Part shown: one piece after another, positions 23,370 through 64,000 of the stretch
How the letters are laid out: each line of letters begins with the position of its first letter
Numbering within the stretch: position 1 is the first letter of the stretch
IMG/VR virus record: IMGVR_UViG_3300047160_006395
Span: 39,398-103,397 of that record
Direction: 5' to 3' (one strand)
From: a virus
DNA: 64,000 nucleotides
Translations under genes and position numbers: made by a program
Notes under the pieces: model-generated
Databases searched by the model: none
The model's input: only the letters and a program-made list of their open reading frames with translations
Told to the model about the DNA's origin: nothing

Positions 23370-23774
23370 TCAGCCTTGTTGCTGAGTCAGGTGTAACTGG
23401 TATGCCAGGGCGGCTGCCCGGACGTAGGGGTTCCTGGTCAGCTCGGCCGCGGCCTGCTTGACCAGACGATCGTTAGCCGGAGCATTGACAGCCCGGGCGC
23501 TGGCCTGTTTGCCCAGAAGAACCTGAAGGCTCTGATGAGCCCCATTCAAGAAGCTGCCTTGAGCACTGGCCTGCTTCTGTTGTTCTTGCTGACCGGCCGC
23601 GAACAAGTCAGCACCCATTTCCAGAAGCTGGACAGCCTCGGCATCGTTGGCCGGAACGATGCCGTAGTCCTGGGCGAGCTTGTTGAAGAACACCGGGGCA
23701 TGGATCTGGCTGTACAAGAAGTCGTACGCCACATCCGGTGCCGGTACTTGAACTTGATCTTGGTTCTCGGGCAT
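23370..23774 (-). CDS. head-associated protein with three KQA motifs
   Basis: 134 aa; QKQAS, GKQAS, VKQAA; GGAGG RBS. Confidence 0.65.
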   Translation of the reverse strand: MPENQDQVQVPAPDVAYDFLYSQIHAPVFFNKLAQDYGIVPANDAEAVQLLEMGADLFAAGQQEQQKQASAQGSFLNGAHQSLQVLLGKQASARAVNAPANDRLVKQAAAELTRNPYVRAAALAYQLHLTQQQG

Positions 23775-23853
23775 GGCGCCCTCCGTGGCTCACGAGGAAG
23801 TTCATGACTAGCGCTAGCTTAGCGAATGGCGAAAGCAAGGGCAAGCCACACAA

Positions 23854-23888
23854 TAGCTAAAAGAAAGAGCCGGATGTAGGCAGCTCTT
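23854..23888 (-). terminator. intrinsic terminator with TTTAGCTA tail
   Basis: AAGAGC/GCTCTT stem followed on the minus strand by TCTTTTAGCTA; directly after the HNH gene. Confidence 0.65.
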
Positions 23889-23913
23889 CATGCTGATACG
23901 CAGCGTAACGGGG

Positions 23914-24636
23914 TCAGGCCAGCTTGCCGTTGGCGTGCTGACGGGCCCGCTCATGCGGACAGTAGCCGTAGCGGCCCTTGGCGTGGTTGCAGTTCGAGCA
24001 CAGCACCTGGAAGCCGGGTGGGTAGTTGTTGGCGATGAGCCACTTGTAGGTGTTTCCTTTACCGATCTTCTTGCGGTGAACTGCCCCGTCGTTGTTGATG
24101 TGGTCGATCTCCAGGAACTCGAAGGTCGACTCGCCGCAGCAGGCGCACTTACCGCCGTAGTGGGTGACGACAGCGCGGCGACGTTTGATGGCGAGCTTCT
24201 GGGCGCGACGGCACTGCTTCGCTGCGCATGCCTCGCCCGTAACCTTACCTGCGACCGCAGGCTCCTTGCCGCACATGACACAGAGACCAGCGGCCTCACG
24301 TTCCGCGTAGTGCTCCTGGATATATCGCTTGTGATCTTCCTTGGTGAGTGGTCGGCGCGCAGCCACAGCAGCAGCTTGCTTGTCGAGGCACTCCTGACAA
24401 CAGGTCTTGCCCTCGACGACCTGCTTGTCCGGGTTGCGGCAGAGCGGACAGATCACGGCCGCCTTGCGGGCCTGATATCTCTTGGCCGCCTGGTCAGAAG
24501 CGATCTTCATGTGGTCCTCGCAACGCCTGTTGCCAGGAACCGCTGGCTTGTTGCACGAGCAGCACAGGCCCTGTGCGGCACGTTCGCGAGCCCGTAGCTT
24601 GTTGGCCTCACGCTGCTCTTCGGGAGTTTTCGCCAT
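23914..24636 (-). CDS. free-standing HNH endonuclease with N-terminal CxxC Zn-finger repeats
   Basis: YGGKCACCGE...LEIDHINNDG...QVLCSNCNHAKG; start chosen at ATG 24636 because of the GAGGTGA RBS. Confidence 0.85.
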   Translation of the reverse strand: MAKTPEEQREANKLRARERAAQGLCCSCNKPAVPGNRRCEDHMKIASDQAAKRYQARKAAVICPLCRNPDKQVVEGKTCCQECLDKQAAAVAARRPLTKEDHKRYIQEHYAEREAAGLCVMCGKEPAVAGKVTGEACAAKQCRRAQKLAIKRRRAVVTHYGGKCACCGESTFEFLEIDHINNDGAVHRKKIGKGNTYKWLIANNYPPGFQVLCSNCNHAKGRYGYCPHERARQHANGKLA

Positions 24637-24690
24637 TGGTGTCACCTCGTGAAACGAGAACAGGGAGGACGGCACGGCGCCGTCTCTCCC

Positions 24691-24721
24691 TGTATATGAC
24701 ACGTTTAAGCAGAAAAGTCAA
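24691..24721 (-). promoter_or_regulatory. putative promoter TTGACT-N15-GTCATATA
   Basis: shares the GTCATAYA box with three other cassette promoters; upstream of the HNH gene. Confidence 0.55.
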
Positions 24722-24733
24722 GAACGATCGTGG

Positions 24734-25678
24734 TTACGCGAAGTCGGCGCGGGCCAGTCCGCCTGTGTGGCCGATCGTCCCACCCATCGTCTCGTAGGCA
24801 AAGAACTCGAGTAAATACGCTTCGCGTTTAATGTACATCGTAGTATCTTCCAATATGTACATTTTGCCTATGAATTTCGGATCAGCATACATGAATATGC
24901 TGTCGTTGGGCACGAGATCGTGCTTGATCGTGATGATCCACCGCTTGTCGAGGAAGTCGGTTTCAGTCCAGCCATTCCGAAGAACGTCCTGGCTGAAGTC
25001 GCCGCCCATCTCATCGCGGCCCCACTTCATGACCTCTTTGATGGTCACGTTGTTGATCAAAACGGTCGCGACTTCGAGTCGCGCGTCGGTACTCGGCATG
25101 ACTTTCAGCGAGTCAAGAACCGAGTCACGAGTGATGCCGCCGTGAATCGTCACCCACTGCGGGATACCCGACCAAGGCACTGCGGTATCGGCGCCAACCA
25201 GCGCGAGCACGGTCGCCCCGATTAGCTTGGAATCTTCCTCCGCTAACATATCCTTAATGGCATTGTCCGAAAGGACTTGCCGAATATCCATGATCCACGT
25301 GCGCAACTCGTCGACGTCCTTGGTGAACCGGGGCGTGACGATGCGGTCGAACGCAACGCGGTAACGCGGGCCGCGGATGTAGACGTTGGTGGGCAACGTC
25401 GCGAATGGGATGGAGATCGCAGCCGGCGAATCCGGTTCTTTGTCCACGATCTTCACCGGTTTGTCAGTATCGACCTGCCGATCCAGCTCGTCGTTGGCGA
25501 TCGGAAGCGGCGGCATGATGCGTCGGGCAAACCCATCTTCACGCATCTTTATGCGGGTAAAGTCATTGACCGCGTCGATGGCGGTCTTGATCATCCCAGG
25601 GTTCGTCAGGTGCGAGAAGAGCGTCTCGTTCATGAGCTGCACTTCGGACCTGGTCATGACGGCGTTGCCGGCTGCCAC
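24734..25678 (-). CDS. major capsid protein (HK97-fold inferred)
   Basis: 314 aa; last gene of the protease-scaffold-decoration block; strong GGAGGAG RBS; MREDGFARRIMPP...EEDSKLI signature. Confidence 0.7.
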   Translation of the reverse strand: MAAGNAVMTRSEVQLMNETLFSHLTNPGMIKTAIDAVNDFTRIKMREDGFARRIMPPLPIANDELDRQVDTDKPVKIVDKEPDSPAAISIPFATLPTNVYIRGPRYRVAFDRIVTPRFTKDVDELRTWIMDIRQVLSDNAIKDMLAEEDSKLIGATVLALVGADTAVPWSGIPQWVTIHGGITRDSVLDSLKVMPSTDARLEVATVLINNVTIKEVMKWGRDEMGGDFSQDVLRNGWTETDFLDKRWIITIKHDLVPNDSIFMYADPKFIGKMYILEDTTMYIKREAYLLEFFAYETMGGTIGHTGGLARADFA

Positions 25679-26405: not shown

Positions 26406-26828
26406 TTACCCGTTACCCATGAGCCGCTGACGGAAGATGCGGAAACTCTCGGGCTCTTCTCCATCGCCAAGACGACGCCCCGCGTAGGGGCCTGACCCGG
26501 CGTTGGCTCGCTTCTCGGCGTGGCCGTTGGTGGCCGGTGAACCAAGCGTGAACGAATTGTCGTCCGTCTTGGTTCGCGCGGTCTTGATCAGGATCTGGAG
26601 CGCACGCACAGGATTCTTGAGTGCGTCAAGCGCCGCCTGTTTTTCTTCCGGCTCGATGAGCTTGGCCTTGAGCAGCTCATCGACGGCCGTGGGAATCAGG
26701 TCGGCAGCCTGTTTCTCCATCTCTTCTTGCCGCGAAAGAACCGAGGCCGCCTTCTCTGCCATTGCGGCAGACATATCGACGAACTCGAGAACCTTCTCGG
26801 GCACAGTCTTTGATCGGGCTTGAGCCAT
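26406..26828 (-). CDS. head assembly/scaffold-like protein
   Basis: 140 aa; helical; EKAA, EKQA twice, EKRA; GGAGG RBS. Confidence 0.6.
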   Translation of the reverse strand: MAQARSKTVPEKVLEFVDMSAAMAEKAASVLSRQEEMEKQAADLIPTAVDELLKAKLIEPEEKQAALDALKNPVRALQILIKTARTKTDDNSFTLGSPATNGHAEKRANAGSGPYAGRRLGDGEEPESFRIFRQRLMGNG

Positions 26829-26845: not shown

Positions 26846-28165
26846 TCAGGTGCCGAGAACTTCGGCGAGGTATTGCCGCATTTCGGCCCGAACCTGCTGG
26901 TCGTACGGGGTGCTGGCTACCTTGTAGCCGAGTTTCCCGGAACGCCGCTTGTCCTTGACCGCTTGGGCGATCTTCAGCAAGGTTTCACGTTGATCGGCAG
27001 CAACCTTGGGAGCAGCCGCCGACAGTTCGTCAGGCTGAACGCCCATCTCGTGCATGGCGCCGCTAAGGTTTTCGGTTGGATCGCCGCCGGTATCCGGAGG
27101 GCCAGCAGGTGGCCCGCCGCCGCCATCACCACCACCAGGAACGAGCCCACCCTGCTGAACGGCAGCAACAAGCTGCTGGAGAACCTCGGGCGGCAACTGA
27201 GCGAGGATCTCCATCGGGTCTTGACCGCCGCCATCACCCTGACCAGGAGCGCCAGGAACGGAATCGTCGCCGCCAGCAGCCGGATTGGCCCCGGACGAAG
27301 CATCGCCCGGGGCCGAATGATCCTCTGCTTCCGTAGCGGCTGGATCAGCAGCTTGCTTGACGGTCTTGGCATAAGCATCGATGAACTCAGCAAGACCGTC
27401 AGCTTGCATCTGGGCTTCTTTGATGATGGTTTCGACCATCGCGGAGATCTGGGCGTCGGTACCGCCGTCATCCAGCCCCAAGGCCGCAGCCAGCTTGTAA
27501 CCGGCAGCAGCCGCGGCTTTGGTTTCTTCATCAGGGGGCGCTGGCGCCGGTTCTGGTTTCCCCGGCTCAAGGTTGCTCACCGTGCTGGCCGGCTTCTCGG
27601 GAGTGGCCTTATGCCCACCACCCTGACCGGGAGCGCCGGCGACACAGCTGTCGCCCATAGCCCGCTTCTCGCCACCGAGTTTGCCCTGCCCCAGATCGGC
27701 CATCAGTTCATTACCGAGATTGCCGATCGCGGCGGCTAGTTTCCGGAAGTCCCATTCACCGTACTTCTCACCATCATCGGCCTTCATAACCGACGTGGTG
27801 CCGGGATCATCCTTGTCACCCTTGAAGTCATCCTCAACAGCTGGGTCCTCACCAGTCGGAGCATGCTTGACCCCGATCTGGGTCTCGTACTGCATCTGAC
27901 CCTTGGGATCGCCGGCGTTCTCAACCGATGGCGCACCAATCTCTTCCTTGACGTCGCTCGTATTCTCTTTGAACCGCGCGCCTTCCTGAAGTTTGATAAG
28001 GCCGTCATCGACATCCTTGGACGGATGCGTCGTCGGGCCACCGCGTGAGCCGGGCTCACTTAGCGGTTCAGCCTGCTTCTCCATGTCGATCTCGTCGAAG
28101 AACGAGCGAAGGCTGGAGAAGACAGCGTTTCTTGGCGTTTTCAAGGTCGACATGAGTGGGGTCAC
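26846..28165 (-). CDS. putative scaffold protein
   Basis: 439 aa; acidic and low-complexity with about 10 K-x-A motifs; between protease and capsid genes; the start may be ATG 28153. Confidence 0.55.
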   Translation of the reverse strand: MTPLMSTLKTPRNAVFSSLRSFFDEIDMEKQAEPLSEPGSRGGPTTHPSKDVDDGLIKLQEGARFKENTSDVKEEIGAPSVENAGDPKGQMQYETQIGVKHAPTGEDPAVEDDFKGDKDDPGTTSVMKADDGEKYGEWDFRKLAAAIGNLGNELMADLGQGKLGGEKRAMGDSCVAGAPGQGGGHKATPEKPASTVSNLEPGKPEPAPAPPDEETKAAAAAGYKLAAALGLDDGGTDAQISAMVETIIKEAQMQADGLAEFIDAYAKTVKQAADPAATEAEDHSAPGDASSGANPAAGGDDSVPGAPGQGDGGGQDPMEILAQLPPEVLQQLVAAVQQGGLVPGGGDGGGGPPAGPPDTGGDPTENLSGAMHEMGVQPDELSAAAPKVAADQRETLLKIAQAVKDKRRSGKLGYKVASTPYDQQVRAEMRQYLAEVLGT

Positions 28166-28208: not shown

Positions 28209-29708
28209 TCAGGATACGTAGTTCTGTCGCACCAGTAAAGTGGATGTCAAGGGGAAAGTCCGTTCGTCGGTCGCCCGAAGCGCCGACGCTAATGCCAGTT
28301 TATAGAATGCGTACTGTCTGGCAAGCCTTTCAGCACCGCCCATATCAGACGCCTGCTTGAGCATTTCCTCACCCTGGCCGCGATGTCGCGGCAAAGGCAA
28401 ACTGCGGATCGCATGTAGGTGAACGCGGTCCTGAATACTTTTCGGGTGCAGCCCGTGTGCCGAAGCGAGCTTGGACGCCCAGGTCTGCATGGCCAGAGGC
28501 GGGGCAACCGCATGGCCATTGAAAACATAGATACTATCCCGCACCTGGGTATCCAGGGTCGGACTTCTGGTAAGCCTACCATAGATGCCCGGCAATTGCG
28601 CGGCTACATCTTCATAGGCATCTTCAGCCTGCTTCTCATCCCCGGCCACCAGAACCAGGAAGTCGCGAAGGGGCAACGCGATCTTCTCATGCGCAAGGGC
28701 CCCAAGCATGTGTTCGAGGCGGTTCCTGGTGTGCAGATCATCCGGGAAGTCCCGGACCGGCTCCTGTACCGCAACATCGAAAGCGCGATCGTTGTTACTT
28801 GAGCCTTCGCCCTCCACACGGCGCTCAACTTCAGCCAGTAGTTGAGCCGTCTTGACATGCTGGGTAACCCAGCTCGGCATGAACGGATCAACCATCAACT
28901 CGAGTGGCATCGTCAAGCCGATCTCTTCGGCCAGGGCAGCGCCACCCAAACCAACAACCCGGCCACCAGCGGCAGCCGCCTTTTCGAGACGGCCCAGGCT
29001 CCAGGCAATCCGGTCAGCCGGCTTGTGAACGTGCGAGTCATCAAACCAGATCGGGTTAGGATTCCTGGCATGAAGCATGTGGCCGTCATCGAACGTGCGG
29101 CCGATATTGTCTTTCAGTCCGCCGTACTTGCACAGAGCACCGTCGCAATACTCGCTGCGGGTTCTGGCCTTGTTGCCGCAGCCCGAGCAGATATCGTGAG
29201 CTACCTTGCAGGCCATGGATGTAGGGATATCCTTGCCCGCTTCTAGTAGCTCTATTTCCTTGTCAGCCACCAGGCCGCCATTAGCCTTGGCGGCTTTTTC
29301 ACTACCGTTCAGGCCAGCCAGCAACTCGATCCGCTTCATGGGCTCGTTGAAGGCCGTGTCCAGAAAACGCCCATAGCTCCGATCAGGATCCTTGTTGATG
29401 TGATTCCTGTAGAACCGGCCGAATTTCTGGAAGGTTCCGTGATGCGTCCGACACTCCTTGCGATCGAAGCCATCGCCATTGCGGTTCGGACCATAGTCTT
29501 CGGTGGCGCCCAGGCCGATGATATGCACCGGGACTTCATCTTCAGCCAGCTTGATGTGCCGGAGTCGGTCGGTAAACTCCACTCCAGCTCGCTTCTCGAG
29601 CACTGAACGGTCATTGGGCCCAAGCCGTCCATTGCGGCGGAGCCGGACCAATACCACGGTCGGTTCACCAAAGTCATAAGCGTTGATGCCGGAGCACTTG
29701 AGCATCAT
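28209..29708 (-). CDS. putative prohead (capsid maturation) protease
   Basis: NRNGDGF...FYRNH...TSMACKV..DICSGCGN...C pattern of phage prohead proteases with a Zn ribbon; synteny. Confidence 0.65.
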   Translation of the reverse strand: MMLKCSGINAYDFGEPTVVLVRLRRNGRLGPNDRSVLEKRAGVEFTDRLRHIKLAEDEVPVHIIGLGATEDYGPNRNGDGFDRKECRTHHGTFQKFGRFYRNHINKDPDRSYGRFLDTAFNEPMKRIELLAGLNGSEKAAKANGGLVADKEIELLEAGKDIPTSMACKVAHDICSGCGNKARTRSEYCDGALCKYGGLKDNIGRTFDDGHMLHARNPNPIWFDDSHVHKPADRIAWSLGRLEKAAAAGGRVVGLGGAALAEEIGLTMPLELMVDPFMPSWVTQHVKTAQLLAEVERRVEGEGSSNNDRAFDVAVQEPVRDFPDDLHTRNRLEHMLGALAHEKIALPLRDFLVLVAGDEKQAEDAYEDVAAQLPGIYGRLTRSPTLDTQVRDSIYVFNGHAVAPPLAMQTWASKLASAHGLHPKSIQDRVHLHAIRSLPLPRHRGQGEEMLKQASDMGGAERLARQYAFYKLALASALRATDERTFPLTSTLLVRQNYVS

Positions 29709-29709: not shown

Positions 29710-31065
29710 TCAGTCGCTCGTCAGGTTACGCCAGATCTGAGGTACGTAAGGTAGCAAGTGCGGCAAAGCGTATAAGCCTGCTCGACCTGCGCTCCCACGA
29801 ATCTTTCCCCATCTGCCTGGACCAACTCCCGCCTTGAGATCAGCCGCGAATCCTTGCTGGCCCTTCAGTCCCAGCCTACTGATGTCCGCCGCAGTCATCG
29901 CTGGTTCTGTTACTGTCCCCGCCGTAGTGTGAGTGCCGCCGCCACGACCAGTCCTGGTGATCGTTGTCTGGGGAATTCCTTCTACACCACCAAGATCCAC
30001 CCCGGGAATGACCGACGGTGAAACACGTCGTGGGCCAGTGCTGGGTGTATTACGACCGGCTTGAATATCTTGTAACTCACGACCCAATCTGGCTTCATTC
30101 AATCTCCGGAATGGGTTCCAACCTCCTCGAAGCGGTATGCCAAACCTCGTTTCACCAAGACTTGGTTCAACATCCGTCAGATATCGCTTGAATCGCAAAG
30201 CCCCGGGATCGGATGAAGGCTTTTCAGGTGTAGGCGATATATCACGCATAGGATCTTGTCTGAACTGCGGTTGATACCCAGGATCACCAGGATTGCCCAC
30301 AGCCGGAATAGGCGGTTGCGGGGTTTCCTTGATCTTGTTAATAGCCGGCGTACCCAGGCTGGGATCAATTCCTTGAACACCCCGCTGTATATCCCGGAAC
30401 AACTGCCCCGGGGCCGTCCTATGGAGATACGCACCCTGAAGCCCGCCAACTCCGGCATGGTACGCAGCCGTGAGCGGGTTCTCCAAACCGGCGCGTATGC
30501 CGCCACGAGCTATCGCGCCAAAAGGCTGCGCAACTCCCTGCCCGATCAGCCCAACAGTAGAAGGCTCTGCCGCAGCGCGGTCGAGCGCGCTCTGCAAGGC
30601 TGGCGGGGGTTCACCGGCGCTGATCGAAGGTGCTGCTGCCCAGGGATTGAGTCGGTAGTGAAGTTTTGCCCAGGGCCCCCACTTCTGGTAAGCCTCAGCC
30701 TGCTGCTTATCCAGCGCTGTGGTCGCTGGCATCGTGTCAGCCCAGTGCTTGAGCCCCTGGTACGCGATGGGCAGAGTACCACCCAGAGTACCACCCAGAA
30801 GGGCACCGGTAAGCGCTGACGTCAGCGGGTTCTTCTTTCGCTTGGAGAACAATCCCATTCCGAGCCCACCTAGCCCGCCCACGCCAGCACCAATGGCGGC
30901 GTGCGTCAGAGCCTGTGATAGATCTGGCGTCCAGGATGGCGGCGCAGGCTGAGCCGTCTTGATGAATCCGCCTACAACACGGCTGGCAACAGCCGTGCGA
31001 GCCAGGAAGTCAGCGGCTTCCGCTGGATTCCTAGACAGCCAGTACGCTGGTTGGCGATGATCCAC
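29710..31065 (-). CDS. putative internal virion protein with glycine-zipper segments
   Basis: 451 aa; IKTA then GAGVGGLGGLG and GALLGGTLGG. Confidence 0.6.
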   Translation of the reverse strand: MDHRQPAYWLSRNPAEAADFLARTAVASRVVGGFIKTAQPAPPSWTPDLSQALTHAAIGAGVGGLGGLGMGLFSKRKKNPLTSALTGALLGGTLGGTLPIAYQGLKHWADTMPATTALDKQQAEAYQKWGPWAKLHYRLNPWAAAPSISAGEPPPALQSALDRAAAEPSTVGLIGQGVAQPFGAIARGGIRAGLENPLTAAYHAGVGGLQGAYLHRTAPGQLFRDIQRGVQGIDPSLGTPAINKIKETPQPPIPAVGNPGDPGYQPQFRQDPMRDISPTPEKPSSDPGALRFKRYLTDVEPSLGETRFGIPLRGGWNPFRRLNEARLGRELQDIQAGRNTPSTGPRRVSPSVIPGVDLGGVEGIPQTTITRTGRGGGTHTTAGTVTEPAMTAADISRLGLKGQQGFAADLKAGVGPGRWGKIRGSAGRAGLYALPHLLPYVPQIWRNLTSD

Positions 31066-32422
31066 CGGTTACTCCGGGGCCTGGTGGCGGCGTGGGGATG
31101 GTACCGACATCCCTCAACATCCGCTCGGTCTTGACGAGGTCACCTACCTGGAACGGATCGAGACTGCCTTGCTGGAGCCGTGTGCGCAATAGTGCGTTCA
31201 TCAACAAAGGCTGCTGGCTAGCCCGCGGGGCCAGCTGGCTGATCTGATTGAAGGCACCCAGGACATCTTCACGATTGTGCCCCTTGATGATCGGATCATT
31301 GGACAGCATATCCTCGATGTCTGCCCGGCTGGCAATATCGCGAAGCGCCTGCTCGTGCTGCGGTGTAGCGATGCGAGCAAGCTGCTTCCCGATGGCCTTC
31401 TCTTTTTCTTGCGGTCGCAAGTTCTCCACGATCGGTGATGCGAACTCACGAGCGAGCATCGCACTGACGCTAGGCAAGAACACTGGACCCGTAGCGGCTT
31501 CTTTGGTGCCCGGCGAGGATATCGGATCCAGTAGTGAAGGTCGCCGGGCTACGACGAAAGGGCGCTCCATTTCCTCCAGGGCGGTTGCCCGGTCAGCGGC
31601 TTGCTTCTCGTTGTCGACAAGCATCTGCCGAAGCCGGCCCGCCAGATCGACCAGATGGGCCACAGTATGGTAAGGCTCACCCATCGCCGAGTGGAACCGA
31701 CCGGTATAGGCCCGCTTCACCAGGTTCGGGCGGGTACGGTGTAGCTGCCTGAGCACCGCCATGCCCTCTTTACCGAACAGCGTTTCGACGTTCTCATGAA
31801 CATCGAGCAGCGTCAGGTTATCCGGCATGGCAAAGTATTCGGCCAGCTTGGCGAAGTCGCCTATGATCTGGTTCTGGATACGCGACGCTTCCAGCCGCTC
31901 TTCTTCATCAGCCCGTGCAGCTTTCTCGCGGGCCCAGATGAGCCGCTGGCCGGCTTCCAGGTCACGGACGGTCGTCGGGTAAGGCGTGACCGTCTTATCG
32001 GTTAGCTTCCAGTCAACAGCTTCAGCCGCCTTCTCCATGCCGGTCTCTTGAACAGACCGGGCATACCAGGTCGGGGCCATGGTATAGCTGTAATGCACCC
32101 CGGACTCGTGTTCGATCGCCGCGGCCGACTTGACGTGAGTAGGATATAGCCGCTCGAGGATTGACGGGGCATCAGCGATAGGAAAGTCGGCTGCCTTGTC
32201 CAACAACGAAGAATGCCCCTCACGCTGACGCGTGGTACGGCCCGTGTTATAAGCGGCCACCATCAGGCCAATCTGGCCAGGTGGGATAGCGTGGTCGGAC
32301 GCCACCTTGACTATGGCGTCATCCGGGGTATCACCCCCGTTGACCAGGTCGACGACGTCATCAAGCGCCGCCTTCAGCCGCGCTTCGCCTTCCTTGGTCA
32401 TTTTCGGCATCGTTCTGGGCAT
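31031..32422 (-). CDS. putative internal head protein, K-x-A rich
   Basis: 463 aa; KVA, KAA, KSA, KRA, KQA, KEA motifs; GGAGG RBS. Confidence 0.65.
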   Translation of the reverse strand: MPRTMPKMTKEGEARLKAALDDVVDLVNGGDTPDDAIVKVASDHAIPPGQIGLMVAAYNTGRTTRQREGHSSLLDKAADFPIADAPSILERLYPTHVKSAAAIEHESGVHYSYTMAPTWYARSVQETGMEKAAEAVDWKLTDKTVTPYPTTVRDLEAGQRLIWAREKAARADEEERLEASRIQNQIIGDFAKLAEYFAMPDNLTLLDVHENVETLFGKEGMAVLRQLHRTRPNLVKRAYTGRFHSAMGEPYHTVAHLVDLAGRLRQMLVDNEKQAADRATALEEMERPFVVARRPSLLDPISSPGTKEAATGPVFLPSVSAMLAREFASPIVENLRPQEKEKAIGKQLARIATPQHEQALRDIASRADIEDMLSNDPIIKGHNREDVLGAFNQISQLAPRASQQPLLMNALLRTRLQQGSLDPFQVGDLVKTERMLRDVGTIPTPPPGPGVTGGSSPTSVLAV

Positions 32423-36544: not shown

Positions 36545-37072
36545 TCATGTTACGCCGGGCTTCACGCCGCCAATTTCTCCCGCCCCAAGACTCCTCATTT
36601 GCGAGCCGCCATGAAGGGCCAGATTCGACAGACCGGCCAGTCCCGCCATGCCAGTCGATCCTAACACCCCTTTTGTCATACCCGAAAGTGGACCGGCAGC
36701 CATCTGACCAAGGAATTGCGGTGTCATCGCACCGCTAACCGCGCCGCCGAGCATGCTGCCGATCCCACCGGCCGGTGGCGCCGGGCTGCCAGCCGGGGCT
36801 GTTGGGCGTGCCGTCGCGGGCGTTGGCTTGCCCAGCGTTCCTGGCGCCGCAGCCGGCTGCGGCGTGACATCCGGAACAGCGGGCGCTGCCGCGACATTCG
36901 ATGTCATCGGTTTGGCGCCGAAGTTACCCGCCGTAGCCGCGCCGCCGGGATTGCTGGGCTTGGTGCCGGCGGCGGCAGTGCTAAGGCTGGAACTCGGCGT
37001 CGATGATGTCGTCGCCTGAGCCATCTTCAGATGTAAAAGAGCAGCCTGCCGTCCCAGCTCTCGCGGACTCAT
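36545..37072 (-). CDS. low-complexity Ala/Gly/Pro-rich protein
   Basis: 175 aa; N-terminal LKMA; Gly-zipper-like C-terminus; GGAG RBS. Confidence 0.55.
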   Translation of the reverse strand: MSPRELGRQAALLHLKMAQATTSSTPSSSLSTAAAGTKPSNPGGAATAGNFGAKPMTSNVAAAPAVPDVTPQPAAAPGTLGKPTPATARPTAPAGSPAPPAGGIGSMLGGAVSGAMTPQFLGQMAAGPLSGMTKGVLGSTGMAGLAGLSNLALHGGSQMRSLGAGEIGGVKPGVT

Positions 37073-57169: not shown

Positions 57170-58564
57170 TCAGCTGTACAGTGCGTTCGCCACGCCCGAG
57201 ATCAGCCCACCCCACATGCCATAACTCTGGAGCTTCTGTTGTGCTTCCGGTTTCAGTCCGGCCAAGGCGCCCAGCGTTTTGCCCACCGCAAGGCCCGTGA
57301 GCCAGCCCTTACCAGCACCCAATGCCGCAGCCGTCCCAACCTGCCACGGACTCAACACATCTGTCTGGGCCGCCTGCGAGGCACCAGACAGCAGCCCGCT
57401 GACGGCAGCCGCTGCATACGGCGGCGTGCCCATAGGCTGCTGGTTATTACCCCAGGGGCTCTTGGTACCAAAGGCGTTAGGTGGATTGCGCACGTCATTC
57501 CAGACGACCTGGTTGAATGCGTCGACCGGGATGGATTGAGTGAACATGGCACCAGTACCGGCGTAGTCCTGAGCTGCCTTACGAAACCACGGATGGACCC
57601 CGGCAAGTTTGGTCCCGTTTGCATCGAGCGGCGAGTTAGTACCGGGAGGCTCACGGCCCGGTTCTTCTTGCGATAGACTCGGCGGCGGCCATGGTAGGGT
57701 AGTGGGTTGGAAAGGCGGCAGCGATGGCCTGGGCGGCTCACCGGTCGATCCTGGCGGCAGGTTCCGGCCCCGCCACTCAGCCGTTGCGCGCCATAGCCCA
57801 GGCGCTGCACCCAGGGCGGCACCACCTAGCCCCAGGGTCCAGGGCAATCGTCCCTTGTTGACGGCTTCATCGGGCAAGAACTGGTCGGCGATCCAGCCGG
57901 CGCCATAACCCAGACCGCCGCCGATCAAGCTGTTGACGATTGCCGAGGTCAACCCGCTCGGGCCACCGATCGCCGTTTGAATGGCACGATGGGGCTTCGC
58001 AATCGGTTCCAGGTAGCCATCTGCTGCTTTGACGAGCACCCAACCTTCCACCGGCGGCGGTGGAATCGGTTCGATGAACAAGGCCATATTGGGCACGCCG
58101 GGGACGTCGGGAAGGCGCTCCCAATCAGCGCGTTTCTCAATGTCGGCCACTTCAGCCCACGCTGTCGAGGTGCCACCGTGCCACCAGAGTCGGTCTTCCG
58201 GGCCGGCGGCTCGATCCGCCCAGGCGGCGAGACGGCATGCCATTGGGGCGGCTTGCTTGTAAAGAGCAACAACCATAATGGGTACGCGTCGCCAACATTC
58301 GAGATCATAGCCATCAACAATCTCCCCGAGTTGGTCTTCGAGTCGGGCCATCTTGAGCCCCTGCCGCCGGTTGAACTCGGCTATCGCTTCATTCATGCGC
58401 TGCCCTTGCGTTCGCCACCTATCGCGTGAATCGACCTTGTAGGCAGCCCGGCCCAGATTCTGACCGATATTCGAGAGCAAACCCTGCTTCGGATCGTAAG
58501 TAGGCTCCTCGGCAAGAACATTCAGAAATGGCCTCTTGACAGGCGAGAACATCGTGTCGTTCAT
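57170..58564 (-). CDS. putative internal virion protein, K-x-A segmented, with Gly zippers
   Basis: 464 aa; KMA, KQA, KRA, KAA, KLA, KAA; several GGGLGYGAG-type segments. Confidence 0.65.
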   Translation of the reverse strand: MNDTMFSPVKRPFLNVLAEEPTYDPKQGLLSNIGQNLGRAAYKVDSRDRWRTQGQRMNEAIAEFNRRQGLKMARLEDQLGEIVDGYDLECWRRVPIMVVALYKQAAPMACRLAAWADRAAGPEDRLWWHGGTSTAWAEVADIEKRADWERLPDVPGVPNMALFIEPIPPPPVEGWVLVKAADGYLEPIAKPHRAIQTAIGGPSGLTSAIVNSLIGGGLGYGAGWIADQFLPDEAVNKGRLPWTLGLGGAALGAAPGLWRATAEWRGRNLPPGSTGEPPRPSLPPFQPTTLPWPPPSLSQEEPGREPPGTNSPLDANGTKLAGVHPWFRKAAQDYAGTGAMFTQSIPVDAFNQVVWNDVRNPPNAFGTKSPWGNNQQPMGTPPYAAAAVSGLLSGASQAAQTDVLSPWQVGTAAALGAGKGWLTGLAVGKTLGALAGLKPEAQQKLQSYGMWGGLISGVANALYS

Positions 58565-58567: not shown

Positions 58568-61500
58568 TCAACCAAAGAGGTGCCACGGGCGCTTGTAGCC
58601 AGGTGACCCTACCCTGCGAAGGACTTCCCGGAACTGCTCGTTGAGTTCTTCCTTGCGCTGCGACTGACGCTCGAGTACTTCGTCAGCAGACGGTCGAGGC
58701 TTGGCGCCGAACATGCTACTGAGCCAGCCCGGCGGCGGCATCTTGGCAACGTATCGCTGTATCCTCACATTGCGTAGCTCGGGCGGCAAGCCCTCATGGC
58801 TGTCATACCGTAACCCGCGGCCCCTGGCCTGACCCAGACGAGCTTCGTTCCAGTGCGGATCGAGCAGCTGAATGAGTTGCGTACCCTTGGCTGAAATACC
58901 TTCGGCGCCAGCCGGCCCGATCAAGAGCACGCGCCGTTTGCCAGCGTTATACTCATCCAGCATCTGCTTGCGCTGCTCATCGGGCATCTCACCGTGGAAC
59001 TGGCCGTAGGGAATTCCCTCGTGTTCGAGCGCCGCCGCGTAAGGCGTCAGCCCGGCGTCGATGAAGTTCGAGTAGACCAGCGCCTTGGCCTGCGGGTTAC
59101 TGGCCAGGGTCTGCTTGAGATTGCCCATGGCAGACTGGAGTTTGGCCGATGTCTGGAAAGCGCGCATCGGATCTTTGGACGAGTGGTACGGGTAAAGCGA
59201 TAAGGCAGCCTGTCGCGGTCCAGTCATGAAGGCTGATAGATGACCCAATTCCTGCTTGGTGAGCGGGTAGTCGTTGGACAGCTTCCAGCGCATCAGCCAG
59301 GGCATCTTGCCCCACATCAGCTTGTAGAAGTCTTGCTGCTCCGGGCTCAGGTTGACTTCTACTCGTTCATCGTTGGTCTTGACCCCTTCAGGCGAACGTG
59401 ATGCCTGGTAGTCAACGTGCCCCTCGAGCAATCGCTCGAGGTCATCTTCGTTCTGGAGCGATGGCACCTTGACCGACTTGACACCCTGGAGCCAACCCAT
59501 CCAGCCAGGACTGACTGTCGTGCTGCCGACGAACTTCTGATTGAAGGCAGCAGGAGTCATTTCCTTGCCAGTAAGGATTGACAAAGGTACAGCCAGATCA
59601 CTGGGCTGATTGACAATCGGCGTGCCTGAGAGCAAGACCCGATGCGGAGCTGTCATAGCCAGATTCATCGCGGCGCGGGCGCCAGCCGACTCCGGGTTGC
59701 GGATGCGCTGGGCCTCGTCAAGTATAATGGTATTAGGTATGTGTTGAGGTTGCTTACCCATTCCAACCCCAGTATATGAAAGAATATCCGGAGCCGAACC
59801 TGGATCCCATCGCCCAACTTCTTTACGGAAGTTTTCCCGCAGCGATGCTGGAGTGATCGCCGCGTAAGGGCCGCCAATGGCTTTAGCCGCTTCGATCGCA
59901 CTCCGAGTTTTTCCAGAACCGAGGCCGTGATAGACAAGAAGCCCATCACCGTGCGCTACTCGTCCGGCAACTCGGCGTTGGTAGGGCTGCATCTCGACGT
60001 TGAGTTGCGCGAGCTTACTCCTAAGATCTGTTCGATCGGCCAACCACGTTGATGTCGCATGTATAGAGTGAGATAGGCAACTTGCAGCTTTTCTGCCCAG
60101 TCCTTGAGCGAAAGAGTCTCGCCCTGATGCGTCAGAATGATATTGTTTTTGCGGCTGTAACGCCTGTCCAGACTGCCGGACGGACATGACAATACATCCG
60201 CTATCGCCATCCCTTTCTTGATCCTCGCTTTGATCATGGTCGGCGACACGCCCAGCCGTCTTGCCCATTGCCTGATGTTCAGCCGCAGCCCATCGTGTTC
60301 CAGGAACTTGGCCGCCTTGTTCTCCGTCCCGGGCGGCACGGTGAGCGCCTGTTTGACCGACCAACCCGCATTGAGCCGACCCCGCAACGTCATGCTGGCA
60401 ATGCCCGTCTCTTCCGCCCACGCGTCGAGCAGCTGCGTCTTTCCGTTGAACGTGATCCTGCGGCAGTAACGCCGGTTCTTGGCTTGTTGCGCCCGCGACG
60501 CCCAAATGCAGTTGCCCGGGAAGTAACCCTTGTCGTTGTCCTTCCGCTCGATCGTCAGTCCGGGTGGGCATTCGCCCATATCGGCCAAGAAGTTCTCGAA
60601 CTTCAGCCAGCGCCGGCAGACCTTGATCCCCCGACCGCCATAGTCCCCGTACTTCTGGTTTTTCGGGTTCTCGCACCGTTGCAGCATGGTGCCCCAACTG
60701 CGATACGTCCGTGAACCGCTCTGCCCGTGTGTCCTGGCCATTTGCGCCTCTCGTGTGAACTTCGTTGTTCCTTTCATTATACGAGAGGTCCGGGGAAGTG
60801 AAAGATGCCGCCTTGGTGAGCCGGCTTCCGACCACCTTGCGCGGGGCGTGGATCCGGAAGTTGGTCCCGATGTGGGTCAGGCCCACGATGCCGTCCTCGG
60901 CCGAGTCCTGGATGAACTCATTAGGGCGTTCGCTGAGCAGCTTCGCGAGGATCGCGTGCTTGGCCGAGTAATTCTTTCTATCCGACTCGGCCTTAGCACG
61001 TTTCAGGTCGGCCAAAATGGGATGGGGCGCAGCGGCTTTCTCACTCCAGACATGACCGCACCGGTTGCACTTGCCAGTACGGGGATCTTGCTCGAGCCGG
61101 GCTCCGCATTTCGGGCAGCATTCGCCAGGCGGACAAGACTCAATCCTCATGCTGCGCGCCAACTTGTTTAGACCTTCGGCCGCCCCGGTTGTCGGGATCA
61201 TGCCGGCTCCATCCTGCGGGCCTGTCGTGGGCAGCTTGCTCACCCATGCCGGCGGCGCAGGCTTGCGCTGCTTGTCCTCGGCGATCAGATCGTCAGTGCT
61301 CTCGCCCACGTTGGGGCTGCGCTCCGGAATGCCGTCGACTGCCGATGCCTCATTACCAAAACCAGCGAGGCTGGCCAACTTGGCAATCGGATGTGTCTTG
61401 AGCGCCTTGAGTGCGGCGATACGCCCTGTATAGAAAGGCTTGGATTCATCCTCGGGTTTGTACTGACGAATTCGCCTGATCGCTGTGTCGAGATGCCGTA

Positions 61501-64000
61501 GCTTGACCTGCGTGAGGCCGCTAGGCTCACTGAGTGAAGGCGGCACGTACGGATCATCGGTTAGCCGGCCTGCTGTGAAGAAAGTGCGCGTGCCACGATA
61601 GGTCTTGGACCGCTCGGCCTGTTGTGGCGTCCTGTACGGCGGCTTCCATTCGTGGAGCACTGGCGGCACGGGCAGCAACACAGGGTCAGCCACAGTCCGG
61701 CCTGACTCTTCAAAGAACTCACGCGCTCCTGCGGCAGCTGGATCTTCACCAGGATCGATACCGCCGCCAAAGACGCCATGGGTCCGATCTTTATCATAGA
61801 TCCCGCCATAGACCTTGCCACCGCTCATGGCGTACATCTCGGCCCGGTCACGATAGGGCTTTTCATCCGCGGTCTTCAGCCCGGCAGGTTGCACCAGGCC
61901 GATAAGCTCGCCCAGCCGTATAACCGACCCTGATAGATCATCCCATCCCAGCACTCCCCGACTTCGGGGTAATAAGTTCTCATGTACTGTGGGATGCGCC
62001 ATGCCACTCTTGGTTGCGGGTTCGCCGTTGTGGCCTGGATGATACAGGTTGCTCTGGTCGCTACTTGCAACGTGTCGATCGTCATGGCTGGCTACCTTGG
62101 TGGAGATGTTCCATTGCGGCCTTTGAATGACTTCGGCGATACTGCCTCTGAGTCCGAAAAGCCGCGAGATAGTCTGGTAATGATCGTGTCGAACGGCACC
62201 TTGTTTCGTTCTGCCCAAACCGAAACTGGCAGTGCCAGCCCATCGACGGTTAATATCCGGTTGTTCCGTCTGTTCCTTGCTTGTGCGGACCTGGTTGCCC
62301 AGTAGCAGTTGTCCTTGCAATATGGGCCTTTGTTGTCCCGCCGTTCGATAGTCAGACTTGCTGGTGGTAGCCCCATGTCCCTGAAGAAGACTGTGAAGTC
62401 CCGCCACTCCGGACAAACCGTTATGCCTCGACCACCCCACTTTGGATAGTCCTTGTGGCCTTTGTCTGTGCACCGCTGGATCATGCTGTGCCATACCGCA
62501 TAAACCGGCGTCTTCGACATGCCGTGTGTCTGGAGCTGTGCTCGCTTCTGCTCGCTTCGCAGACAACCGCACGACTGAGTTCTGCCCTTCGTCTTTGCAG
62601 TTAGTCGCGAACTTCTGATGTCCTTCACTTTTCCGCAGACACAGCGGCAGGTCCACCAGCTGTTCCGGTTCGGCGGTCTGTTCGGCGCGCGAACGATCAC
62701 TTCCAACCTTCCGAAATGGTCCCCCGGGCTTATTTGGGTAGTCTTCATGGAGCCCTATGAATGAAGGCACACGCAGCGCGCCGCTGGGAAGCTGCTGTTG
62801 TGTTTTGACTCTTGCGACCCGCCCGATATAGGCCGATGGATCACGGGCAATATCCTCGAGAGTCGCATCAGAGAAGCCAGTTCCGATCTTGCCAACCGTT
62901 GGCCCACCTGCCGTGCGCGCGTATGTGAGGCCACCGACAGTACCACGCCTTTTCCCTTCACCTGGGAATGTACCCGTGATAAAAGCATCAACATCTTCCA
63001 TGAGCTTGGCCTTCGATGGTACTCCATGTCGAGGCCAAAAAACAGCTCCCTCCTGAGTTAGTGGGTGCGCGCCCCCACGAACCATGTTCCAGAGCTTGGT
63101 TGCAGCTTCAGAGCCATGATGCTCCTCGGAAAGGTGGAACTTATCCTGGGGCAGGTGAGCCAGGATCTCCTCGAGCATCCGCCGCCGCTCGGCCCGCGGC
63201 GTGACGGACGGATCGATCGGCTTCTTACCATACTGCTGGACGTCGTAGAGCATGTTGCGCAGGGTCAATCCACGCTCTTTCTGGAGCTGGAGGCTGCGCG
63301 CAATGCTGGAGTTGAGTAGAGTCCCAACGTCCTGGGGTCCAAGTCTAGCTCTGCCCGCAGCACCGCCAGATGCAGCATCAGCATCGCTTGTTTGCGGCTC
63401 AGCTTCGGCTCTTCCTCCAGGGCCAGCTGCCATACCCGCAGCACTGCCATTTGTTCCGCGACCCGTCCTTGCAGCATACATCTCACCTTTCAGGATTGAT
63501 CCCTCAAGGTGCTTGGGCACTGGTATCTCAGGCCGGCCACCGAAGAAGCGCTCAGTGTGGAAGATCGGCCGGCCCGTCATCTTTGACGTCCTGAAACTTA
63601 ACATCTCGGCATGGTTCTTGGCCAGCTGCACCAGCTGGCTGGCACCATCGACCTTGGCCTCGACGGTATCACCTTCCTGCATCTTCTGGAGATGGGGCTC
63701 GATAGCTTCGGGAGGGATCTTCTTGTAGTGGACCTTCCCGTAAGGCACTGGATCCCGTGGCGTGGTATTCATCAAGAGCCAGTTCTTGTTGCCCCAGCCC
63801 TTGGGCCTGGCCAGTACGAAGCGCTCTGGGTGTCTCTGGTGAGCTGTCGTGAAATGGACCGATTCCGGCGTGGCTTTGGTAATCAGGACCTGGCCTTCTT
63901 CATGCTTCTTCACCCGGCCGGCGCCATAACCGGATGGGATCACGCCCTCGAAGTCCTTGTACCCGTGGCGATGCACAGGCTGCTGCACAGCCAGGTGCTT
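58568..64000 (-). CDS. polyprotein (5'-truncated): LigD-type 3'-phosphoesterase, ATP-dependent DNA ligase, NUDIX hydrolase, Zn finger, SNF2-family helicase
   Basis: KHLAVQQPVH...FEG.IP.GYGAG (PE); EAKVDG, GEMY, YDV, EGAV, GTGFSD (ligase); GGIDPGED...AREFFEESG (NUDIX); GLGSGKT, LDEAQ, LSGTP, QARGR (SNF2); frame is open past the window edge. Confidence 0.85.
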   Translation of the reverse strand, partial: KHLAVQQPVHRHGYKDFEGVIPSGYGAGRVKKHEEGQVLITKATPESVHFTTAHQRHPERFVLARPKGWGNKNWLLMNTTPRDPVPYGKVHYKKIPPEAIEPHLQKMQEGDTVEAKVDGASQLVQLAKNHAEMLSFRTSKMTGRPIFHTERFFGGRPEIPVPKHLEGSILKGEMYAARTGRGTNGSAAGMAAGPGGRAEAEPQTSDADAASGGAAGRARLGPQDVGTLLNSSIARSLQLQKERGLTLRNMLYDVQQYGKKPIDPSVTPRAERRRMLEEILAHLPQDKFHLSEEHHGSEAATKLWNMVRGGAHPLTQEGAVFWPRHGVPSKAKLMEDVDAFITGTFPGEGKRRGTVGGLTYARTAGGPTVGKIGTGFSDATLEDIARDPSAYIGRVARVKTQQQLPSGALRVPSFIGLHEDYPNKPGGPFRKVGSDRSRAEQTAEPEQLVDLPLCLRKSEGHQKFATNCKDEGQNSVVRLSAKRAEASTAPDTRHVEDAGLCGMAQHDPAVHRQRPQGLSKVGWSRHNGLSGVAGLHSLLQGHGATTSKSDYRTAGQQRPILQGQLLLGNQVRTSKEQTEQPDINRRWAGTASFGLGRTKQGAVRHDHYQTISRLFGLRGSIAEVIQRPQWNISTKVASHDDRHVASSDQSNLYHPGHNGEPATKSGMAHPTVHENLLPRSRGVLGWDDLSGSVIRLGELIGLVQPAGLKTADEKPYRDRAEMYAMSGGKVYGGIYDKDRTHGVFGGGIDPGEDPAAAGAREFFEESGRTVADPVLLPVPPVLHEWKPPYRTPQQAERSKTYRGTRTFFTAGRLTDDPYVPPSLSEPSGLTQVKLRHLDTAIRRIRQYKPEDESKPFYTGRIAALKALKTHPIAKLASLAGFGNEASAVDGIPERSPNVGESTDDLIAEDKQRKPAPPAWVSKLPTTGPQDGAGMIPTTGAAEGLNKLARSMRIESCPPGECCPKCGARLEQDPRTGKCNRCGHVWSEKAAAPHPILADLKRAKAESDRKNYSAKHAILAKLLSERPNEFIQDSAEDGIVGLTHIGTNFRIHAPRKVVGSRLTKAASFTSPDLSYNERNNEVHTRGANGQDTRAERFTDVSQLGHHAATVREPEKPEVRGLWRSGDQGLPALAEVRELLGRYGRMPTRTDDRAEGQRQGLLPGQLHLGVAGATSQEPALLPQDHVQRKDAAARRVGGRDGHCQHDVAGSAQCGLVGQTGAHRAARDGEQGGQVPGTRWAAAEHQAMGKTAGRVADHDQSEDQERDGDSGCIVMSVRQSGQALQPQKQYHSDASGRDSFAQGLGRKAASCLSHSIHATSTWLADRTDLRSKLAQLNVEMQPYQRRVAGRVAHGDGLLVYHGLGSGKTRSAIEAAKAIGGPYAAITPASLRENFRKEVGRWDPGSAPDILSYTGVGMGKQPQHIPNTIILDEAQRIRNPESAGARAAMNLAMTAPHRVLLSGTPIVNQPSDLAVPLSILTGKEMTPAAFNQKFVGSTTVSPGWMGWLQGVKSVKVPSLQNEDDLERLLEGHVDYQASRSPEGVKTNDERVEVNLSPEQQDFYKLMWGKMPWLMRWKLSNDYPLTKQELGHLSAFMTGPRQAALSLYPYHSSKDPMRAFQTSAKLQSAMGNLKQTLASNPQAKALVYSNFIDAGLTPYAAALEHEGIPYGQFHGEMPDEQRKQMLDEYNAGKRRVLLIGPAGAEGISAKGTQLIQLLDPHWNEARLGQARGRGLRYDSHEGLPPELRNVRIQRYVAKMPPPGWLSSMFGAKPRPSADEVLERQSQRKEELNEQFREVLRRVGSPGYKRPWHLFG
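59956..60741 (-). CDS. nested +1-frame HNH-family endonuclease (YGGRGI type) with repeated C-terminal DNA-binding modules
   Basis: THGQS...W..MLQRC.NP....Y.DYGGRGIKVC..W..FENFLADMG..P...TIERKDND.GY.PGNC.WA; ATG 60741 with GAGG RBS. Confidence 0.85.
   Translation of the reverse strand: MARTHGQSGSRTYRSWGTMLQRCENPKNQKYGDYGGRGIKVCRRWLKFENFLADMGECPPGLTIERKDNDKGYFPGNCIWASRAQQAKNRRYCRRITFNGKTQLLDAWAEETGIASMTLRGRLNAGWSVKQALTVPPGTENKAAKFLEHDGLRLNIRQWARRLGVSPTMIKARIKKGMAIADVLSCPSGSLDRRYSRKNNIILTHQGETLSLKDWAEKLQVAYLTLYMRHQRGWPIEQILGVSSRNSTSRCSPTNAELPDE
60776..60803 (-). promoter_or_regulatory. putative internal sigma70-like promoter of the nested HNH gene
   Basis: perfect TATAAT at 60776-60781; TTCACT/TTTCAC 15-16 nt upstream; located inside the polyprotein coding frame. 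Confidence 0.5.
61876..62085 (-). CDS. nested +1-frame small ORF (69 aa)
   Basis: starts 6 nt after the HNH stop with an AAGGT RBS; its stop overlaps the Lys codon of the KTA site before NUDIX. Confidence 0.5.
   Translation of the reverse strand: MTIDTLQVATRATCIIQATTANPQPRVAWRIPQYMRTYYPEVGECWDGMIYQGRLYGWASLSAWCNLPG
62092..62748 (-). CDS. nested +1-frame HNH-family endonuclease
   Basis: G.HFGRLEVI...W.CRC.CG...SCGC...THGMS...W.SM.QRC....WGGRGITVC.EW..F..F..DMG...TIERRDN..Y.KDNC.WAT. Confidence 0.88.
   Translation of the reverse strand: MKTTQISPGDHFGRLEVIVRAPNRPPNRNSWWTCRCVCGKVKDIRSSRLTAKTKGRTQSCGCLRSEQKRAQLQTHGMSKTPVYAVWHSMIQRCTDKGHKDYPKWGGRGITVCPEWRDFTVFFRDMGLPPASLTIERRDNKGPYCKDNCYWATRSAQARNRRNNRILTVDGLALPVSVWAERNKVPFDTIITRLSRGFSDSEAVSPKSFKGRNGTSPPR
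63265..63477 (-). CDS. nested +1-frame small Leu-rich ORF (70 aa) inside the ligase
   Basis: AAAGGTGA RBS 5 nt before ATG 63477; coincides with a ~40-aa low-complexity insertion in the ligase frame. Confidence 0.45.
   Translation of the reverse strand: MLQGRVAEQMAVLRVWQLALEEEPKLSRKQAMLMLHLAVLRAELDLDPRTLGLYSTPALRAASSSRKSVD

Follow-up and report, generated by a model that had tools for sequence, protein, structure and literature searches.

A Lys-x-Ala motif in head-module proteins of an uncultured phage, probably recognised by its capsid-maturation protease

The tripeptide Lys-x-Ala (K-x-A) is strongly overrepresented in a set of head-module proteins of an uncultured phage, and we propose that it probably forms the centre of a signal seven residues long, read by a capsid-maturation serine protease that the phage itself encodes in open reading frame (ORF) 28209–29708. 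This reading is supported by an enrichment that is limited to the protease and the surrounding head-module proteins and that recurs clade-wide with positional conservation. The sequence analysed (the window) is a stretch of 64,000 nucleotides, bases 39398–103397 of a 103,397-bp uncultured phage contig (IMG/VR record IMGVR_UViG_3300047160_006395), whose real genes lie on the minus strand throughout. The span treated here holds the head module, including the capsid gene (24734–25678), with most head genes lacking a family assignment; a bacterial-type RNA polymerase split into beta+beta'N (43705–49224) and beta'C (37778–39772); and, closing it, a ligase-NUDIX-SNF2 fusion ORF (58568–63988) that runs past the window edge.

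Six ORFs, named here by their lower coordinate, carry the excess:

28209–29708, minus strand: probable capsid-maturation (prohead) serine protease, 499 amino acids (aa), with a catalytic domain at about aa 41–245 that holds a Cys4 insert, a helical C-terminal domain, and 12 K-x-A sites of its own.
26846–28165, minus strand: acidic protein of 439 aa, rich in Gly/Pro and scaffold- or core-like, 12 sites, the first of which, K30 (IDMEKQAEPLS, 28070–28078), is conserved.
26406–26828, minus strand: small helical head protein, 140 aa, five sites, four of them E-K-x-A; all five are kept in 65–100% of orthologues.
23370–23774, minus strand: small Gln/Ala-rich head protein, 134 aa, four sites; site 67 is kept in 100% of orthologues.
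31031–32422, minus strand: head or internal protein, 463 aa, all 10 sites in residues 1–310 and none in the C-terminal 155.
33908–36517, minus strand: large conserved protein of unassigned role, 869 aa, 12 sites, including a propeptide-like K29 (36425–36433) kept in 92% of orthologues.

Pfam, PHROGs, and NCBIfam searches placed none of these six proteins, the protease included, in a family.

We compared each protein with 500–2000 shuffles of its own sequence, composition kept, and give figures as observed/expected. K-x-A reached 12/4.0 in 26846, 12/2.5 in 28209, and 10/2.4 in 31031 (P = 0.0005 for each), 12/4.1 in 33908 (P = 0.001), 4/0.7 in 23370 (P = 0.0025), and 5/1.7 in 26406 (P = 0.0135), where the longer form EKxA stood at 4/0.2 (P = 0.0005). 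Taken together, the six ORFs contain 55 sites vs. 15.2 expected (Poisson P = 3e-15), and the motif takes up 40% of their lysines. A positive control on phage T4, with its (L/I)-x-E cleavage code, gave the same signature: gp22 16/5.7, gp21 7/2.5, and gp68 5/2.0.

The motifs and positions quoted in the initial annotation are all present in the sequence, and the composition-corrected comparison of head with tail ORFs that it proposed left the excess in the six ORFs and the tail at expectation. Its list of motif-dense ORFs proved too broad: beyond the six, ORF 57170 (6/2.1; P = 0.0145) and ORF 49242 (5/3.0, not significant; EKxA 3/0.2, P = 0.0025) are marginal. The tail sparseness it described holds as a low count and not as depletion: the 44 tail/fibre ORFs upstream stand at 42/47.0, and their apparent sparseness arises from low Lys content. 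No K-x-A excess was found in the RNA polymerase ORFs (43705, 10/9.5; 37778, 1/3.5) or in the capsid protein taken as a whole (1/1.3).

The excess is specific to this residue pair and spacing. In the six ORFs, reversed and re-spaced controls lay near or under expectation (A-x-K 12, K-x-x-A 20, KA 18), and among all residue pairs at gaps of 0–3, K-x-A was the top outlier (z 10.2), followed by EK (5.3) and KQ (4.2), both of them pieces of the same longer motif. Glu-type motifs were not enriched in these proteins ([LI]-x-E 22/21.9, [SAG]-x-E 32/42.7, A-x-E 15/19.1), nor were [VLI]-x-A (46/52) or E-x-A. Arg, or Ser/Gly, can be dismissed as general substitutes: the window counts are R-x-A 12/17.4 and K-x-[SG] 11/18.9. 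A compositional cause is ruled out by the shuffles together with the control motifs. At the nucleotide level, the pattern AAR-NNN-GCN appears in frame 55 times, against 6 and 2 in the remaining two frames and 5–7 per frame on the opposite strand, and codons within the motif mirror the overall usage of these genes. The in-frame-only pattern and ordinary codon use exclude a DNA-level motif as the cause; the excess is a protein-level signal.

One reading of a protein-level excess assigns it no signal function at all: it would be a structural by-product of helical scaffolds rich in Ala, Lys, and Glu, or of shared ancestry among internal repeats. Several sites do lie in predicted helices, E, K, A, and Q are helix formers, and the six proteins are compositionally unusual. 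We regard this reading as most improbable, given that the shuffles keep composition, that A-x-K, K-x-x-A, KA, E-x-A, and R-x-A are not enriched, and that unrelated families share flank preferences and keep their sites as islands in diverged flanks, in disordered linkers, and in proteins that cannot be aligned.

Those flank preferences were read from relatives. We fetched 80 related loci with 10-kb flanks, thinned them to 43 with pairwise protease identity <80%, and assigned their ORFs to window families by BLAST. From 2083 sites in relatives we obtained the logo [F/L/M/I]-[E/V/I/T]-K-[Q/T/E/R/L; not G/P/D]-A-[S/A/E; not P/I]-[D/A/F; not K/R], of which the short seven-residue form is [F/L/M/I]-[E/V/I/T]-K-x-A-[S/A]-[D/A]. 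The window's own 72 sites agree with it. A flank-only score trained on relatives averaged 1.79 in the six ORFs vs. −0.92 for the 103 other K-x-A occurrences of the genome (Mann–Whitney P = 3e-8). With one family left out at a time, five of six still scored clearly higher than K-x-A elsewhere in the genome (3.85, 3.65, 0.99, 1.67, and 2.44 vs. about −1), 26406 being the family at 3.65. At conserved sites, exceptions that retain Lys are mostly K-x-S (12) and K-x-G (4), and Arg never replaces Lys where Ala is kept. Pro is depleted at +1 and at +3. Glu precedes Lys in just 23–33% of sites, and the position three before Lys is uninformative; with this lack of a P3 signal and of any x-x-E excess, a cut between Glu and Lys by a Glu-specific enzyme is unlikely.

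The same families are enriched across the clade. In the 43 relatives, K-x-A stood at 89/27 in family 23370, 121/37 in 26406, 364/166 in 26846, 634/184 in 28209, 506/185 in 31031, and 444/177 in 33908, an enrichment of 2.2–3.5x, and the interleaved families lay at expectation (major capsid protein [MCP] 26/23, 25735 16/16, 32424 60/68, beta'C 74/99). A-x-K and KA mostly remained near 1x in the six families; the exceptions among controls were K-x-x-A in 23370 (2.3x) and KA in 26406 (1.6x).

We scored a window site as conserved where K-x-A fell within 3 alignment columns of it, and took flank identity over 24 columns. By this measure, K-x-A is retained at 27 of the 55 window sites in 60% or more of the orthologues, in flanks only 10–40% identical. 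Site K106 of 26406 is kept in 100% of orthologues at a flank identity of 0.09. In 31031, 100% of orthologues keep sites 39 and 76, and 76–81% keep 131, 236, and 307, at flank identities of 0.11–0.17 (K131: 81%, 0.11); in 26846, sites 30, 142, 270, and 415 are kept in 83–92%. Other sites turn over, and the mean number per orthologue stays at the window level (14.8, 12.6, 11.2, 9.7, 5.0, and 3.9). Judged from these alignments, the pattern is that expected of a short linear motif under selection.

A second distribution concerns N-terminal positions. The first four ORFs below have such sites; the last two are further candidate substrates:

24734–25678, minus strand: major capsid protein, 314 aa (PHROG major head protein match, E 1.5e-6; 28% identity to the MCP gp226 of Salmonella phage Arash, E 4e-37).
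29710–31065, minus strand: membrane-like protein with a Gly-zipper; its one N-terminal site is K36 (GGFIKTAQPAP, 30952–30960).
36545–37072, minus strand: Ala/Pro/Gly-rich protein with one N-terminal site, K16 (LLHLKMAQATT, 37019–37027), and one BLAST homologue among the loci.
42446–43201, minus strand: Gly/Ala/Pro-rich protein with an N-terminal site, K32 (GDMEKTAQPPD, 43100–43108), known from the window sequence only, in a context like that of K30 in 26846.
49242–50414, minus strand: candidate substrate with transmembrane-like Gly-rich segments and tandem sites K98 (50115–50123) and, downstream, K104.
57170–58564, minus strand: marginal candidate substrate, 464 aa, six sites, mean flank score 1.55.

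The N-terminal sites listed by the initial annotation (K31 of the capsid protein, K36, K16, and K32) all exist. K-x-A occurs at residues 10–50 in 13 of 31 head-region ORFs (23370 upward; 6.0 expected) vs. 5 of 44 tail-side ORFs (4.4 expected). The ORF just upstream of the protease, at the position of 29710, cannot be aligned between relatives, and K-x-A falls at residues 10–50 in 25 of 28 of them (8.9 expected; controls 9–14), always preceding the Gly-zipper. By analogy, these N-terminal sites look like cleavable propeptides of the kind that internal proteins of T4 and ejection proteins of SPN3US carry (PMC5694885). The tandem sites of 49242 have the best flank scores outside the six ORFs (K98, 5.7; K104, 3.7).

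The sole K-x-A of the capsid protein is at K31 (PGMIKTAIDAV, 25580–25588) and is conserved in 23 of 23 orthologues. The mature capsid protein avoids the motif: past residue 45, a single K-x-A occurs across all 24 orthologues vs. 19 expected, with A-x-K at 28 and K-x-x-A at 21, in a family that is well conserved.

The proposed enzyme is the product of ORF 28209, which is probably the maturation protease; the grounds are fold matches to annotated prohead proteases in BFVD, invariant His and Ser residues, and synteny. The ORF has >600 full-length homologues (E ≤ 0.001) on contigs up to 229 kb; in IMG/VR, 186 matches lie on contigs of 12–235 kb. Among 30 sequences down to 42% identity, H103, S164, and G209–H210 are invariant and D208 nearly so, and H103 and S164 are invariant in a second set of 30 as well. 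These putative catalytic residues follow the order His → Ser → third residue. The AlphaFold model shows an N-terminal alpha/beta domain and a helical C-terminal domain, with low-confidence segments at 1–40, 228–268, and 448–456. A Foldseek search of BFVD returned 20 matches at E ≤ 0.001, including phage G gp19 and models annotated "prohead serine protease," "capsid maturation protease," and "COG3740," with probabilities of 0.99–1.0 to prohead proteases (for example A0A8S5T591, rmsd 4.6 over 185 columns). By tblastn, matches comprised Arash gp222, three Vibrio phages, phage G gp19, Rhodococcus phage E3 gp77 ("prohead protease"), and Gordonia phage Stormageddon gp13 ("capsid maturation protease"); gp19 of phage G has independently been called a head-maturation protease (PMC12484599). 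The gene order 33908-32424-31031-29710-protease-26846-26406-25735-MCP is kept in 80 loci and in Arash gp218–gp226.

Three conserved sites of the protease coincide with the low-confidence segments of its model:

29586–29594, minus strand: K39-R-A (SVLEKRAGVEF), candidate N-terminal propeptide site at the edge of low-pLDDT segment 1–40, kept in 98% of orthologues.
28974–28982, minus strand: K243-A-A (GRLEKAAAAGG), candidate site of autocleavage or release where the catalytic domain ends, in linker 228–268; kept in 98% of 42 orthologues at a flank identity of 0.27.
28350–28358, minus strand: K451-Q-A (EEMLKQASDMG), candidate C-terminal linker site in low-pLDDT segment 448–456, kept in 86% of orthologues at a flank identity of 0.19.

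These observations suggest the following sequence of events. The capsid protein would assemble around a core made of the protease zymogen, the scaffold-like proteins (26846, 26406, and 23370), and internal proteins bearing N-terminal propeptides (31031, 33908, 29710, 36545, 42446, and probably 49242). The protease would free itself at linker sites K39, K243, and K451; cut the scaffold-like proteins every 35–45 residues, into peptides small enough to exit the shell; trim propeptides of 16–40 residues off the internal proteins; and probably remove 33 residues from the capsid protein. The mature shell, lacking the motif, would remain intact.

Motifs of this kind could instead be uncleaved docking or assembly elements that bind scaffold and cargo to the capsid interior, to the portal, or to each other. 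Multivalent short motifs in disordered scaffolds and N-terminal targeting peptides would fit binding equally well, and the particles of Arash reportedly keep near-complete coverage of the K-x-A-rich gp220 and gp223. Avoidance by the capsid body and enrichment at the domain linkers of the protease are what a cleavage signal predicts, and the density matches the signature of the T4 cleavage motif; on balance, docking is improbable.

Taking K-x-A as a cleavage signal, we favor, with some reserve, a cut after Ala, which would make K the P3 residue, A the P1, S/A the P1′, and E/V/I/T the P4. This bond is the probable one because the prohead and herpesvirus proteases that have been studied follow a P3-x-P1↓small rule (arrow, cut bond). 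The main alternative, a less likely one that still deserves weight, places the cut after Lys (P1 Lys, P2′ Ala). HK97 gp5 reads TFNK↓SLGS at its known maturation site (sequence checked), BFVD matches include HK97-type COG3740 proteases, both +1 and +3 are depleted of Pro, and Arg never replaces Lys (R-x-A 12/17.4). An invariant P2′ Ala would be unusual; the K-x-A-[S/A] spacing fits the P3-x-P1↓small architecture of the T4, phiKZ/SPN3US, and herpesvirus enzymes; and Ala is replaced chiefly by Ser or Gly, which suits a small S1 pocket.

Comparison with characterized systems would place the K-x-A signal within a known mechanism. The enzymes of T4, phiKZ, 201phi2-1, and SPN3US cut after the third residue of P3-x-P1, all ending in Glu (PMC10052503, PMC5694885), and in SPN3US, with the logo V-A-x-E↓S, Val is favored at P4 and Ser at P1′ (PMC10052503, PMC5694885); the window motif resembles this logo in favoring E/V/I/T at −1 and S/A at +3. 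Like the T4 gp21 system, the window has a protease in the head module, many sites in scaffold and core proteins (gp22 and gp67/gp68 in T4) and in the protease itself, what appear to be short N-terminal propeptides on internal proteins (capsid-targeting ones in T4), a probable single N-terminal capsid cut, and the P3-x-P1 architecture. It differs in that P1 would be Ala (or Lys) rather than Glu, with Glu-type motifs unenriched, and in the protease itself, which has 499 aa, a Cys4 insert, a large helical C-terminal domain, and no detectable sequence similarity to gp21. The phiKZ gp175 and SPN3US gp245 enzymes (MEROPS S80) also come from large phages; these have a multisubunit RNA polymerase in the virion and process many head and ejection proteins, and the enzymes show C-terminal autocleavage and multi-site propeptides (PMC10052503, PMC5694885). 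Their sites are [S/A/G]-x-E or A-x-E, cut after Glu, whereas here Lys would stand at P3 and Ala at P1, and the RNA polymerase has no motif excess.

Herpesvirus assemblin (MEROPS S21) cuts (V/L/I)-x-A↓S. If the phage cut falls after Ala, the two would share P1 Ala and P1′ Ser/Ala, along with a release-type site directly past the catalytic domain (here K243-A-A); the likeness is drawn on sites and not on fold, P3 is Lys here vs. hydrophobic there, and host and virus lineages differ. HK97 gp4 (MEROPS S78, COG3740) cuts gp5 at K103↓S104, which resembles the window motif in having Lys beside the scissile region and a small residue next, and COG3740 models appear among the BFVD matches. In HK97, the part removed is a delta domain, 103 residues long and fused to the capsid protein, and hhalign gave a probability of 0.1 to gp4. 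We know of no K-x-A rule for HK97 gp4, and no Lys-x-Ala cleavage rule was found in the literature searched. The best reading is a P3-x-P1 cleavage code that would represent a new specificity of a known mechanism.

Several points weigh against this interpretation. We infer cleavage, the bond cut, and the fate of the products from sequence alone, throughout the clade. The orthologue counts are not phylogenetically independent, and the pooled P values are overstated. For the window protease, 30 relatives, Arash gp222, phage G gp19, and E3 gp77, Pfam and NCBIfam gave no match; sequence and profile searches of the PDB with the protease were empty; hhalign against T4 gp21 and HK97 gp4 gave a probability of 0.1; and Foldseek against the PDB returned nothing at E ≤ 0.001 with either the full model or the domain model (pLDDT 85, pTM 0.79). 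Not every site can be a cut site, as some fall within folded or conserved segments (aa 168 and 229 in the catalytic domain; helices at aa 413 and 470). The capsid site K31 is followed by Ile/Leu/Val, disfavored by the logo at +3, and the capsid N terminus is conserved throughout, so that K31 is not independent evidence. Family 33908, when held out, scored −0.53, with background-like flanks and fast site turnover. In the Arash particle proteome, K-x-A-rich gp220 and gp223 have 96–100% coverage, unlike degraded and expelled scaffolds. The initial annotation had assigned K-x-A specificity to the ORF 28209 protease: enrichment, conservation, avoidance, the N-terminal sites, and the lack of any Glu-type excess agree with this, and the enzyme, matched to no curated family or solved structure, is a plausible maturation protease.

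Two cultured phages show related signals. Arash (180.8 kb) has the same gene order as the window, with an MCP 28% and a protease 35% identical to the window's. In the 130 kb analyzed, K-x-A lies at expectation overall (182/174), and the top-ranked ORFs are gp220 (10/3.0), gp223 (8/3.1), gp242 (8/3.4), and the protease homologue gp222 (7/3.2), with gp225 at 7/1.8; the Arash MCP reads LVKEAG at residue 27. The published proteome of Arash gives protein-level coverage only, which cannot reveal cut sites, and the preparation yielded 116 proteins, including ribonucleotide reductase. In Bacillus phage G (JN638751, 8000–30000), gp19 stands at 8/2.5 (P = 0.001) and gp21 at 7/2.9, and the portal N terminus reads MAKQAAS at residue 18; the capsid protein gp27 was searched for K-x-A and has none. 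These counts hint that the rule may reach as far as phage G.

ORF 33908 is a candidate virion protein, solely from the correspondence of gene order with Arash gp218, to which BLASTP at E ≤ 1e-4 found no match. ESM Atlas gave low-confidence models and no usable match for 33908 and 31031.

The ligase-NUDIX-SNF2 fusion that closes the span was a further part of the original claim, as a polyprotein with K-x-A at its domain borders:

58568–63988, minus strand: ligase-NUDIX-SNF2 helicase "polyprotein" (Pfam domains), 15 K-x-A sites, running off the window.

Overall, the motif stands at 15/9.1 (P = 0.03), with regional counts of 0/2.6, 4/1.1, 0/0.6, 10/2.6, and 0/2.2: the ligase, NUDIX, and helicase domains hold 0 vs. 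5.4 expected, and the sites fall between the enzyme domains (14 vs. 3.7 expected). The motif is in excess between the domains, but the flank scores are near background (mean −0.5) and most sites are poorly conserved. Only aa 984 (61031–61039) and aa 996 (60995–61003) are kept in both close relatives, where most inter-domain stretches are absent; the scan with the helicase part found just these two near relatives and has little power for site conservation. Against them (L096 and L097), the middle of the polyprotein (aa 400–1400) is hypervariable, with large insertions and deletions, and the helicase domains are 75–86% identical. In more distant relatives (L082–L086), the modules are encoded apart or in other fusions, and each such ORF has K-x-A at residues 14–46. 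It is doubtful that the K-x-A code also cuts the polyprotein inside the prohead, delivering separate enzymes with the DNA. The broader proposal that the motif predicts which products are packaged is not supported: the RNA polymerase, detected in the Arash virion proteome, has no excess, and most polyprotein sites are unconserved.

Other features of the module were noted alongside. In the catalytic domain of the protease, the invariant C174, C177, C188, and C193 cluster between the Ser164 and His210 regions and form a possible zinc-binding insert; to our knowledge, T4 gp21 and HK97 gp4 have no comparable four-Cys cluster. The protein at the 29710 position (also in L003–L080) evolves fast, is always encoded directly upstream of the head protease, and conserves only the N-terminal K-x-A and the Gly-zipper; it may be a membrane-inserting ejection protein. 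An 863-aa head protease of one relative (P0009) contains LAGLIDADG_3 and Hint_2 domains, the RNA polymerase ORF 43705–49224 has a sub-threshold LAGLIDADG_3 match at aa 667–715, and a 683-aa ORF at the Arash portal-gene position (52728–54779) has a sub-threshold Intein_splicing match at aa 348–606; intein and homing-endonuclease insertions look common in essential genes of the clade. An HNH endonuclease gene (PHROG 2255; 23914–24702) lies between the capsid gene and ORF 23370, has a homologue in 3 of 80 related loci, and probably arrived recently as a mobile insertion; A-x-K is just as frequent in it (7/3.1) as K-x-A (7/3.1), whose count is hence compositional. Outside the window, a Lys-rich 411-aa protein with no family match (G000:C1:1562-2797, locus L094, minus strand) carries the high-scoring sites RMEKLAADN and AAEKLAAQS; its gene is distant from the head module, and it may be one more substrate associated with the head.

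Cleavage rules of head proteases are known for few phage groups only. The K-x-A rule, if true, would supply the specificity of a very widespread, uncharacterised protease family and would allow scaffold, propeptide, and cargo proteins to be predicted from sequence only, in a lineage with ~90% of its head genes unannotated. It would also give mass-spectrometry searches the right non-tryptic termini, and with Arash and phage G in culture it is directly testable. A cut after Ala and before Ser/Ala would link these phage enzymes to the specificity of herpesvirus assemblin, and cleavage of the ligase-NUDIX-SNF2 fusion, if it occurs, would mean polyprotein processing of virion cargo in a phage.

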